NCBI RefSeq assembly: GCF_003334315.1 | Contig: NZ_QOWR01000021.1 | Source of the DNA: Escherichia coli | Lineage (GTDB): Bacteria > Pseudomonadota > Gammaproteobacteria > Enterobacterales > Enterobacteriaceae | Direction: 5' to 3' (one strand) | DNA: 64,000 nt | Shown here: piece after piece, positions 1 through 1,484 of the stretch | Numbering within the stretch: position 1 is the first letter of the stretch | Layout of the letters: each line of letters opens with the position of its first letter | Notes under the pieces: generated by a model | The model's input: the letters and a program-made list of their open reading frames with translations, nothing else | The model's database searches: none | Told to the model about the DNA's origin: nothing | Made by a program: the position numbers and the translations under genes

Positions 1-228
1 AGGCAGCACCTGGCACGGCTGGGACGGAAGTCGCTGTCGTTCTCAAAATCGGTGGAGCTGCATGACAAAGTCATCGGGCATTATCTGAACATAAAACACT
101 ATCAGTAAGTTGGAGTCATTACCCGAATTCAGACAAATATAAACAAATCCTGCTCAAAATTAAAAATTCTAACCGGTAAAAGATATTACTTAAACATGTA
201 AATTCACTTTCCTTTAAAAAACAAAAAA

Positions 229-258
229 CCGCCAAAATCAGGCGGTTTTTTGTTGCTG
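229..258 (+). terminator. Rho-independent terminator-like hairpin (aaccgcc..ggcggtt followed by T-run); A-run upstream makes it potentially bidirectional
   Basis: GC stem-loop followed by TTTTTTG read directly from the sequence. Confidence 0.6.
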
Positions 259-389
259 GTCCGGTTCGCGGCCTTTCCAGCAGGTTGTATTACCGTAGTA
301 ATGCAAGCGCGTCTCAGCGGAGACAATACTCGCCAGTAACTCTCTTTTTGTCAAGCAAAAGAGAGTTATTATTGTTCTGTTAGTGTATT

Positions 390-705
390 ATCCACTGCGG
401 CCCTTTCCGCCGTCTCGCAAACGGGCGCTGGCTTTAGGAAAGGATGTTCCGTGGCCGTAAATGCAGGTGTTTCACAGCGCTTGCTATCGCGGCAATATCG
501 CCAGTGGTGCTGTCGTGATGCGGTCTTCGCATGGACCGCACAATGAAGATACGGTGCTTTTGTATCGTACTTATTGTTTCTGGTGCGCTGTTAACCGAGG
601 TAAATAATAACCGGAGTCTCTCCGGCGACAATTTACTGGTGGTTAACAACCTTCAGAGCAGCAAGTAAGCCCGAATGCCGCCCTTTGGGCGGCATATTTT
701 AGATT
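390..705 (+). ncRNA. ryfA: Putative sRNA RyfA region (sseA-sseB intergenic), ending at the terminator hairpin 675-700; 5' end not determined
   Basis: RyfA is known to lie between sseA and sseB, convergent with sseB; strong + strand terminator abuts the sseB stop; no long ORF; boundaries are approximate. Confidence 0.35.
675..700 (+). terminator. Intrinsic terminator (atgccgccc-tttg-ggcggcat then ATTTT) overlapping the sseB stop codon
   Basis: Perfect 9-bp stem plus T-run seen in sequence. Confidence 0.6.
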
Positions 706-1484
706 ATCCGATTCTGTTTAAAGTCACGCAAAAAACCACCCCAGCGACGTTCATAGAATGGCGCAATATGTTCGGTAATAAAGTGGCTAATTCCTTTTTC
801 CCCTTTTTTCACCTGACAAATATCGATTGGTTCATCGCCAGGTAATGTATCGGTCGCTACACTTCCCGTCGCCTGAATAATTTCTTCGATATCACCATCG
901 GCTTCAATGCCAATAAGTAAATTAGGCTGTGCCTCTTCGTTCTCTTTAATTGAACAAATAAAAGCACGCTTCACCGGCTTAATGGTTTTAAATAAGGTGG
1001 TGAGTGAATCAATCATTTGTGCTGGCGGCTCTGCGACTTCCGATAATATCAGCGATTCACCGCCTTCCAGGATTTCCTGGCTGCTCAGCGGATTTCCCTC
1101 TTCACCAATCAACAAACTGATTTCACGCGGCATAAATTCTTTACCGGTTGGCAGTTTGGCATTAAGGAAGAGCGTTTCGCCAAGTGTCATCTCAAACAGC
1201 GTGCGAACGGGCATTACGACAAATGCCTGTTCGTCTTCAACCGCCTGTTGAAGTGCTTCTAACGAGGTGAAAAAAGGAATGACGCTGGTGCCGTCTTCTT
1301 TTTCCCAGTGCTGTAAATCAAGCGCGCTATCTTCAACCACAGCCTCGCCCTGCGCCGCCGTACCAGGCACCCAGACGGTGGATTCCAGTAGAGTACGGAA
1401 AAAGGCCGGGCGGTGCGCCGGTTCAGTTGCTGCTTTTTCCAGCAGGTCTTCAAGTTCGTTTTTTGTTTCGGACATAAGAACCAC
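699..1484 (-). CDS. sseB: Enhanced serine sensitivity protein SseB
   Basis: 261-aa ORF recognised as SseB; position between the ryfA region and pepB. Confidence 0.9.
   Translation of the reverse strand: MVLMSETKNELEDLLEKAATEPAHRPAFFRTLLESTVWVPGTAAQGEAVVEDSALDLQHWEKEDGTSVIPFFTSLEALQQAVEDEQAFVVMPVRTLFEMTLGETLFLNAKLPTGKEFMPREISLLIGEEGNPLSSQEILEGGESLILSEVAEPPAQMIDSLTTLFKTIKPVKRAFICSIKENEEAQPNLLIGIEADGDIEEIIQATGSVATDTLPGDEPIDICQVKKGEKGISHFITEHIAPFYERRWGGFLRDFKQNRII

Follow-up and report, generated by a model that had tools for sequence, protein, structure and literature searches.

The timPR (ryfA) locus is a type I toxin-antitoxin system, described by Andresen et al. in 2020 and subsequently the subject of papers on a pseudoknot and a structural switch in its mRNA. 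In Salmonella, the sRNA TimR (STnc2070) represses the translation of TimP and rescues TimP toxicity (PMC7667032). TimR and its E. coli K-12 MG1655 counterpart, timR (b4811), are ~100-nt divergent sRNAs encoded directly upstream of timP and ended by an intrinsic terminator. The K-12 gene lies on the minus strand, just after sseA and 400 bp upstream of ryfA, and the TimR/RyfA papers consider a single E. coli timR, "adjacent to ryfA." Shigella dysenteriae carries two tandem modules, RyfB1-RyfA1 and RyfB2-RyfA2, in which ~100-nt divergent sRNAs display pair-specific complementarity to the neighboring transcripts, and RyfB1 lowered RyfA1 and not its sibling RyfA2 (Fris et al. 2017, PMC5333039). Back-to-back promoters, nonoverlapping genes, and an antitoxin RNA that pairs with the toxin 5'UTR are likewise found in tisB/istR-1, zorO/orzO, shoB/ohsC, and dinQ/agrB, whose sequences are unrelated to the locus considered here. 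A further K-12 RNA, ECS011/IS129 (PMC3175480; Chen et al. 2002), has been labeled "cis-antisense to IS128," with its function unknown (PMC3175480), and "antisense to IS128" in a Term-seq study. We found no paper linking this RNA to TimR/RyfB, nor any mention, in the papers searched, of two K-12 timR copies differing in their seeds.

Here, we analyzed 64,000 nucleotides of an E. coli contig (NZ_QOWR01000021.1), referred to as the window, whose left end is the E. coli sseA-sseB intergenic region. This region is matched in all of the complete E. coli genomes searched (5426/5426), where ryfA is annotated as the timP toxin gene. The interval upstream of ryfA had been described as noncoding DNA holding three consecutive plus-strand terminator-like structures; instead, an IS1 element ends at its left, followed by an sRNA gene on the minus strand and a divergent promoter region (Table 1). 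The evidence argues strongly that this interval is a mosaic, two-copy timPR (ryfA) control region, in which the GC-rich hairpin nearest to IS1 (hairpin 1) ends a minus-strand TimR paralogue and an AT-rich palindrome occupies the untranscribed gap between two promoters.

In the corresponding mechanism, hairpin 1 would be the Rho-independent terminator of a ~100-nt minus-strand sRNA (320 to 221), which is predicted to have two small stem-loops between an unpaired 5' seed and the terminator itself. The palindrome would be part of the DNA of a 76-bp gap between back-to-back timR-like and timP promoters, its loop holding the timR -35 box TTGACA, one arm forming the spacer of the timR promoter, and the other the -35 region of timP. 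By analogy with Salmonella, where this was demonstrated, the 5' end of TimR would pair with stem-loop 2 of the timP 5'UTR and thereby block TimP translation. In this genome, the copy adjacent to timP has a type I seed and faces a timP of type II; the copy that matches this timP (type II; b4811 in K-12) is placed upstream of IS1, and any regulatory effect of the adjacent copy in this strain is one that we infer.

Table 1. Features of the sseA-sseB intergenic region at the left end of the window.
Feature	Position	Strand	Basis or details
IS1 right end	1-123	+	insB 3' end and terminal inverted repeat ...gtcattacc
IS1 target-site duplication	124-132	none	cgaattca(g)
AT-rich "IS128 spacer," right part	124-219	none	
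Hairpin 1, intrinsic terminator of the TimR-like sRNA	220-254	-	Fold energies, K-12 Term-seq, covariation
TimR/RyfB-family sRNA "copy B" (ECS011/IS129 of K-12), ~100 nt	221-320	-	Covariance model, reads, northern blot, homology
Putative promoter of the TimR-like sRNA	326-354	-	-35 TTGACA (354 to 349), 17-bp spacer, -10 GAGTAT (331 to 326)
Palindrome	337-368	none	Loop, timR -35; left arm, timR promoter spacer; right arm, timP -40 to -29
Putative timP/ryfA -10 box TATTAT	386-391	+	GTAttAT-like box kept in all genera
ryfA RNA (timP mRNA), type II 5'UTR	397-700	+	Rfam RF00126, 314.9 bits
TimR target site in the timP 5'UTR, gcaggtgtttcacagc	~463-478	+	
timP ORF	543-668	+	ORF listing; timP annotated in E. 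coli genomes
ryfA/timP terminator	675-695	+	Term-seq 3' end 2654157(+), window 699
sseB, followed by pepB	699-1484	-	

The identity of the minus-strand RNA is first indicated by the architecture of the region. Window positions 220 to 413 form a direct repeat of the K-12 timR (b4811) region, with 82% identity. The repeat runs from the terminator through the sRNA body and promoter region to nucleotide 17 of ryfA; K-12 and the window therefore possess a second TimR-like module adjoining timP. We refer to the annotated, distal gene as copy A, the only one annotated in K-12 RefSeq, and to the gene adjoining timP as copy B. While Rfam contains no TimR/RyfB family, a covariance model built from 10 TimR homologues of Yersinia, Rahnella, Citrobacter, Pantoea, Erwinia, and Superficieibacter, with zero Escherichia sequences, matches window positions 219 to 317 (minus strand) over its full length (100.9 bits; E value, 7e-21). 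The same model gives 75.7 bits for the annotated K-12 copy A. Salmonella TimR is outside the alignment and the model, and the pattern used to scan the genome collection is too strict to recover Salmonella. In the consensus TimR fold, the 5' end is free and two small stem-loops precede the terminator, with compensatory changes across genera within the terminator stem (hairpin 1) and also in stem-loop 1.

Copy B shares with Salmonella TimR and b4811 the conserved core GCUGGAAAGGCCGC...CCAGC and a free 5' seed that would be directed toward stem-loop 2 of the timP 5'UTR. It is divergent to timP/ryfA and directly upstream of it without overlap, the 5' ends being located at 320 (minus) and 397 (plus), the latter according to Rfam and the K-12 annotation. 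Judged by sequence and homology, the RNA ended by hairpin 1 is thus a TimR/RyfB paralogue, a second copy of the family. Unlike the described antitoxins, this candidate antitoxin is not the annotated copy of K-12, and its seed is of type I whereas the timP next to it has a type II target. The suggestion that the interval might encode a separate antitoxin-like sRNA was therefore right as to the presence of such a gene and wrong as to its strand.

Several other matches were obtained with the same approaches. The covariance model gave a weak hit at window positions 37676 to 37768 on the plus strand (20.9 bits; E value, 0.006), overlapping a perfect 12-bp GC-rich inverted repeat (37737-37765); it is probably just another terminator. 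Between positions 179 and 341, Rfam matches to the rimP and rnk leaders (minus strand) and to OrzO-P, AgrB, and the Phe leader (plus strand) all score below their gathering thresholds. These were rejected because they appear to be driven by the terminator hairpin; those to OrzO-P and AgrB are far below threshold and on the strand opposite to copy B. Two additional subthreshold matches, ES036 (CssrF) and naRNA4 (CssrE), at 1533-1600 in the sseB-pepB intergenic region, probably correspond to a repetitive extragenic element.

Hairpin 1 and the palindrome are real features, far above chance expectation: distinct perfect inverted repeats with arms of 12 bp or more and loops of 3 to 10 nt number only six in the window, compared to 0.02 per window in block shuffles, and these are two of the six. 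The GC hairpin with a T-run originally reported at 229-258 was recovered as a larger structure, a 14-bp perfect inverted repeat, aacaaaaaaccgcc/ggcggttttttgtt, separated by a 7-nt loop and built around a ccgcc/ggcgg core (229-233 and 241-245). Its predicted RNA fold is similarly stable on the plus strand (-20.7 kcal/mol; z score, -4.7) and on the minus strand (-21.1 kcal/mol; z score, -4.1), and it is followed by a T-run on both, TTTTTTGTTG (plus) and UUUUUUGUUUUUU (minus). By sequence alone, it could terminate transcription bidirectionally.

The direction in which hairpin 1 operates is indicated by published K-12 MG1655 data, from which all of the expression and end-mapping information used here derives and whose genome is identical to the window between positions 206 and 441. 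Shinhara et al. (2011; PMC3175480) sequenced ECS011 (IS129) as a 71-nt sRNA, and this read is the exact reverse complement of window positions 250 to 320, making it the same RNA as copy B. With a strand-specific probe, which corresponds to window positions 284 to 318, they detected bands of ~95 and ~100 nt by northern blotting in K-12 (PMC3175480). The Term-seq data of Adams et al. (2021) include four curated 3' ends within K-12 positions 2653200 to 2654199. On the minus strand, the end at 2653354 belongs to the copy A terminator (one condition; score, 34,005), and that at 2653679, i.e., window 221, belongs to copy B and recurs under each of the three growth conditions (scores, 48,011 to 208,460). 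On the plus strand, a weak end at 2653940 corresponds to window 482, and the remaining one is that of the ryfA terminator (Table 1). Together, the ECS011 read and the Term-seq end define an RNA of ~100 nt running from 320 to 221 and ending in ...GGCGGUUUUUUGU.

On the minus strand, hairpin 1 thus combines a CCGCC/GGCGG stem, an A/U extension, and an RNA 3' end after UUUUUUGU in K-12; the plus strand has the sequence features of a terminator, with no 3' end reported in K-12. Hairpin 1 had been presented as a plus-strand terminator-like hairpin: it is a genuine intrinsic terminator, but the RNA that it ends is the minus-strand one. No primary 5'-end map was found for the interval, the Cappable-seq and SMRT-Cappable-seq supplements having zero entries there, so position 320 rests on the ECS011 read and on promoter geometry. 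The weak plus-strand end at window 482 falls within ryfA, only a few nucleotides beyond the TimR target site in the 3' direction (...cacagcgctt), and could be a processing or pairing-dependent end.

The same data bear on the possibility that three successive plus-strand terminators bound several short plus-strand RNAs, for instance, IS128 ending at hairpin 1 and another transcript after the palindrome. The good plus-strand T-run of hairpin 1 is compatible with this proposal, as are the Rfam IS128 family (RF00125), which matches window 92-265 on the plus strand with 164 bits, above its gathering score, and a simple terminator scan that includes 335-370 on the plus strand. Moreover, K-12 has a duplicated timP-type promoter upstream of the spacer, which could drive such an RNA. 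The curated K-12 Term-seq set for 2653200-2654199, however, has no plus-strand 3' end at ~258 or ~381, the very result that the original prediction had set against itself, and only the terminator-like structure proposed at 675-700, which is indeed that of ryfA/timP, has a plus-strand 3' end. In addition, plus-strand IS128 went undetected with a strand-specific probe in K-12 and was called an artifact or condition specific (PMC3175480). In the window, IS1 severs the IS128 region from the upstream promoter, 39 model positions being replaced by 4 nt of the intervening IS1 end. A ~209-nt plus-strand transcript ending at hairpin 1 was seen neither by the K-12 probe nor by Term-seq, and its template is split here. 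The second proposed terminator, the palindrome, has G-C pairs at only 3 of its 12 positions and an interrupted U-tract and is located upstream of the ryfA 5' end. A set of short plus-strand RNAs is thus very improbable and, for K-12, already largely refuted.

We favor the minus-strand TimR paralogue, and RF00125, whose plus-strand match spans the spacer and hairpin 1, probably models the conserved spacer DNA together with the terminator of the opposite-strand TimR copy. In K-12, the counterpart of window 92-265 is found at positions 1214 to 1422 of our locus L001, where a predicted plus-strand IS128 RNA would start at the duplicated, truncated timP promoter of copy A.

The palindrome, taactctctttt/aaaagagagtta, pairs perfectly over 12 bp around an 8-nt loop (-15.4 kcal/mol; z score, -3.6). 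The repeat was correctly described in the original prediction; the T-rich stretch said to follow it is interrupted (ttattattgttctgtt). The palindrome lies within the 76 bp separating the divergent 5' ends at 320 (minus) and 397 (plus), which are normally not transcribed, and for this reason we do not regard it as a terminator. Its G-C-poor stem, its broken U-tract, its position upstream of both 5' ends, and the lack of a K-12 Term-seq 3' end all speak against the plus-strand terminator function suggested for it. It is promoter DNA.

From conservation and geometry, we infer the positions of the timR and timP promoter boxes. We aligned 22 modules, drawn from seven genera (Yersinia, Rahnella, Citrobacter, Pantoea, Erwinia, Superficieibacter, and Escherichia), whose elements follow a shared order: terminator, conserved core, variable seed, -10 box, 17-bp spacer, GTCAAG, and timP -10 box. 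GTCAAG is present in 20 of the 22 modules and replaced by GTCAAA in two from Yersinia; read on the minus strand, it is the -35 element TTGAC. The putative timR -10 box conserves the pattern nAnTAT, and the 17-bp spacer is variable in sequence and seemingly constant in length, as counted by hand in E. coli types I to III only. The distance from the timP -10 box to the GGCCCTTTCCGCCG start is conserved in all genera. The GAGTAT box is weak and was missed by a consensus promoter scan. That scan returned a plus-strand candidate, TTGTCA-16-TATTGT (348-375), which was rejected: unlike TATTAT at 386-391, TATTGT is unconserved in other genera, and the candidate probably arises because the TTGACA box is nearly palindromic.

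In contrast to these boxes, the palindrome is restricted. It is perfect over 12 bp in E. coli type I modules, retains 9 to 10 bp in type II, and is absent from the O157 type III modules and from every other genus in the 22-module alignment; in E. whittamii, it is degraded by uncompensated changes. Its absence outside the E. coli type I and II modules indicates that it is neither a conserved element nor a terminator. Its perfection nonetheless opens the possibility of an E. coli-specific operator, in line with the protein-binding site offered as an alternative in the original prediction; a dimeric protein placed over the timR -35 box and the timP -35 region would coregulate both promoters in type I and II modules. 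Such a role is conceivable, although we consider it unlikely: the dyad is far above chance, is centered on the promoter core, and is perfect or near-perfect in both module types while their flanks are only 82% identical, but the O157-type modules and six other genera retain the same promoters without it, and its arms carry uncompensated changes in K-12 copy A, in ST648 module 2, and in E. whittamii. We know of no binding motif that matches the palindrome.

The relationship between copy B and its neighbor was addressed by comparing seeds and targets. Three co-varying types of TimR 5' seed and timP 5'UTR target are present in E. coli: type I (seed CCGCUGAGACGCGCUUGC, target gcaagcgcgtctcagcg), type II (seed GCUGUGAAGCACCUGC, target gcaggtgtttcacagc), and type III, from O157 (seed CACUGUGGGGUGCCUG, target caggcaccccacagtg). 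Cognate duplexes are predicted to be the most stable (-48.3, -45.3, and -42.2 kcal/mol). In K-12 and in the window, the distal, annotated copy A is of type II and the proximal copy B carries the type I seed CCGCUGAGACGCGCUUGC, while the sole timP is of type II; in this genome, copy A is beyond IS1 and outside the window. The near-perfect partner of the copy B seed, a type I UTR, is absent from the window. Using 24-nt seeds, pairing of the adjacent sRNA with its own timP UTR ranges from -31 to -40 kcal/mol in 21 other loci, and the window pair is the outlier of the 22 at -24.6 kcal/mol; K-12 copy A with the window timP gives -36.2 kcal/mol.

Copy B is nevertheless still substantially complementary to the type II target: a hand count over 16 nt yields 11 Watson-Crick pairs, three G-U pairs, and two mismatches, so "noncognate" is a matter of degree. 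This leaves room for copy B to be a working second antitoxin, the two copies being redundant and the adjacent, more abundant one doing most of the work. Such a role is a serious possibility, if on balance a doubtful one. The Term-seq signal of copy B greatly exceeds that of copy A in K-12, and its 40-nt 5' region is still predicted to form a duplex of -37.7 kcal/mol with the window timP UTR. Against this, the seed/target pair is the weakest among the 22 loci, and the sparing of RyfA2 by RyfB1 in Shigella dysenteriae indicates that small seed differences can confer specificity. Taken as a whole, the sequence comparisons suggest that copy B, which is expressed in K-12, is an apparently noncognate or orphan antitoxin copy.

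The arrangement of modules varies across genomes. The two-copy spacer is present in 1862 of the 5426 E. coli genomes, and the ST648-type full duplication in 154; the K-12-type deletion junction is covered over at least 80% of its length in at most 1840, a figure that includes some full-duplication genomes matched in two pieces, and the remaining genomes have a single module. In ST648 (locus L007, 1239-2420), the order is sseA, timR-I, timP-I, an 87-bp sseB fragment, the spacer, timR-II, timP-II, and sseB, each timR adjoining its matching timP. The Shigella dysenteriae modules (ryfB1/ryfA1/ryfB2/ryfA2) were described with this layout, and the spacer follows the sseB fragment left by the tandem duplication. 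K-12 and the window differ from Shigella dysenteriae and from ST648 in that a deletion has left only the first 17 nt of the upstream toxin copy, as a result of which two sRNA copies face one toxin gene. Their seeds are, moreover, swapped relative to ST648, and this opposite order points to recombination between modules in the core tcgcggcctttccagcagg and in the timP 5' end.

The window carries a further rearrangement. IS1 is inserted in the spacer that separates the two timR copies; the right junction is at window position 124, and the left junction, in locus L002, reads ...tccgaattca/ggtgatgctgcc. The same junction occurs in the pig isolate 2018-18.25PC, where an IS1 family transposase is annotated, and it is covered in at most 11 of the 5426 complete E. 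coli genomes. The insertion cuts timP off from the matching TimR copy A and from the duplicated, orphan timP-type promoter and splits the Rfam IS128 region. Located 97 bp past the sRNA 3' end, IS1 could also alter local transcription.

Other loci have been remodeled in different ways. In Yersinia similis (L021), Y. aleksiciae (L030), and Citrobacter amalonaticus AUH_CA_2023_1 (L038), the timR body is fused to the timP 5'UTR just past the TimR target site. On the plus strand of these loci, the timR seed region and the timP target are direct repeats, and both promoters, together with the first ~60 nt of timP, appear to have been lost in a deletion between these repeats, which would naturally inactivate the locus. 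In E. coli 06-00048 (L006, ~1368-1570), the sequence normally found upstream of timR has given way to ISEcB1, an IS3-family element that also cuts into the timR terminator, a further insertion-sequence event within this short region.

These results add to known biology one unannotated, apparently noncognate family member and leave the general understanding of type I toxin-antitoxin systems unchanged. For annotation, hairpin 1 belongs to an sRNA gene that is expressed in K-12 and unannotated, and Rfam probably misleads in calling IS128 on the other strand. K-12-type strains have two TimR copies with different seeds, and the one adjacent to timP is mismatched yet has the higher 3'-end signal; anyone deleting a single "timR," designing probes, or predicting targets in these strains must therefore specify the copy.

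We may further speculate that, in the K-12-type mosaic (about one-third of E. coli), the abundant timP-adjacent copy is neither redundant nor a dead remnant and has been kept as an orphan antitoxin for another job, an idea that we hold to be rather improbable. If true, copy B might provide "anti-addiction," or immunity between timPR specificity types, by neutralizing type I timP alleles as they come in, or might regulate unrelated mRNAs in trans, and the three co-varying types would be the signs of an allelic specificity system that recombination among modules maintains. By joining seed/target co-variation, module recombination, and insertion-sequence traffic in one short intergenic region, the locus offers a compact case for the evolution of antisense specificity.
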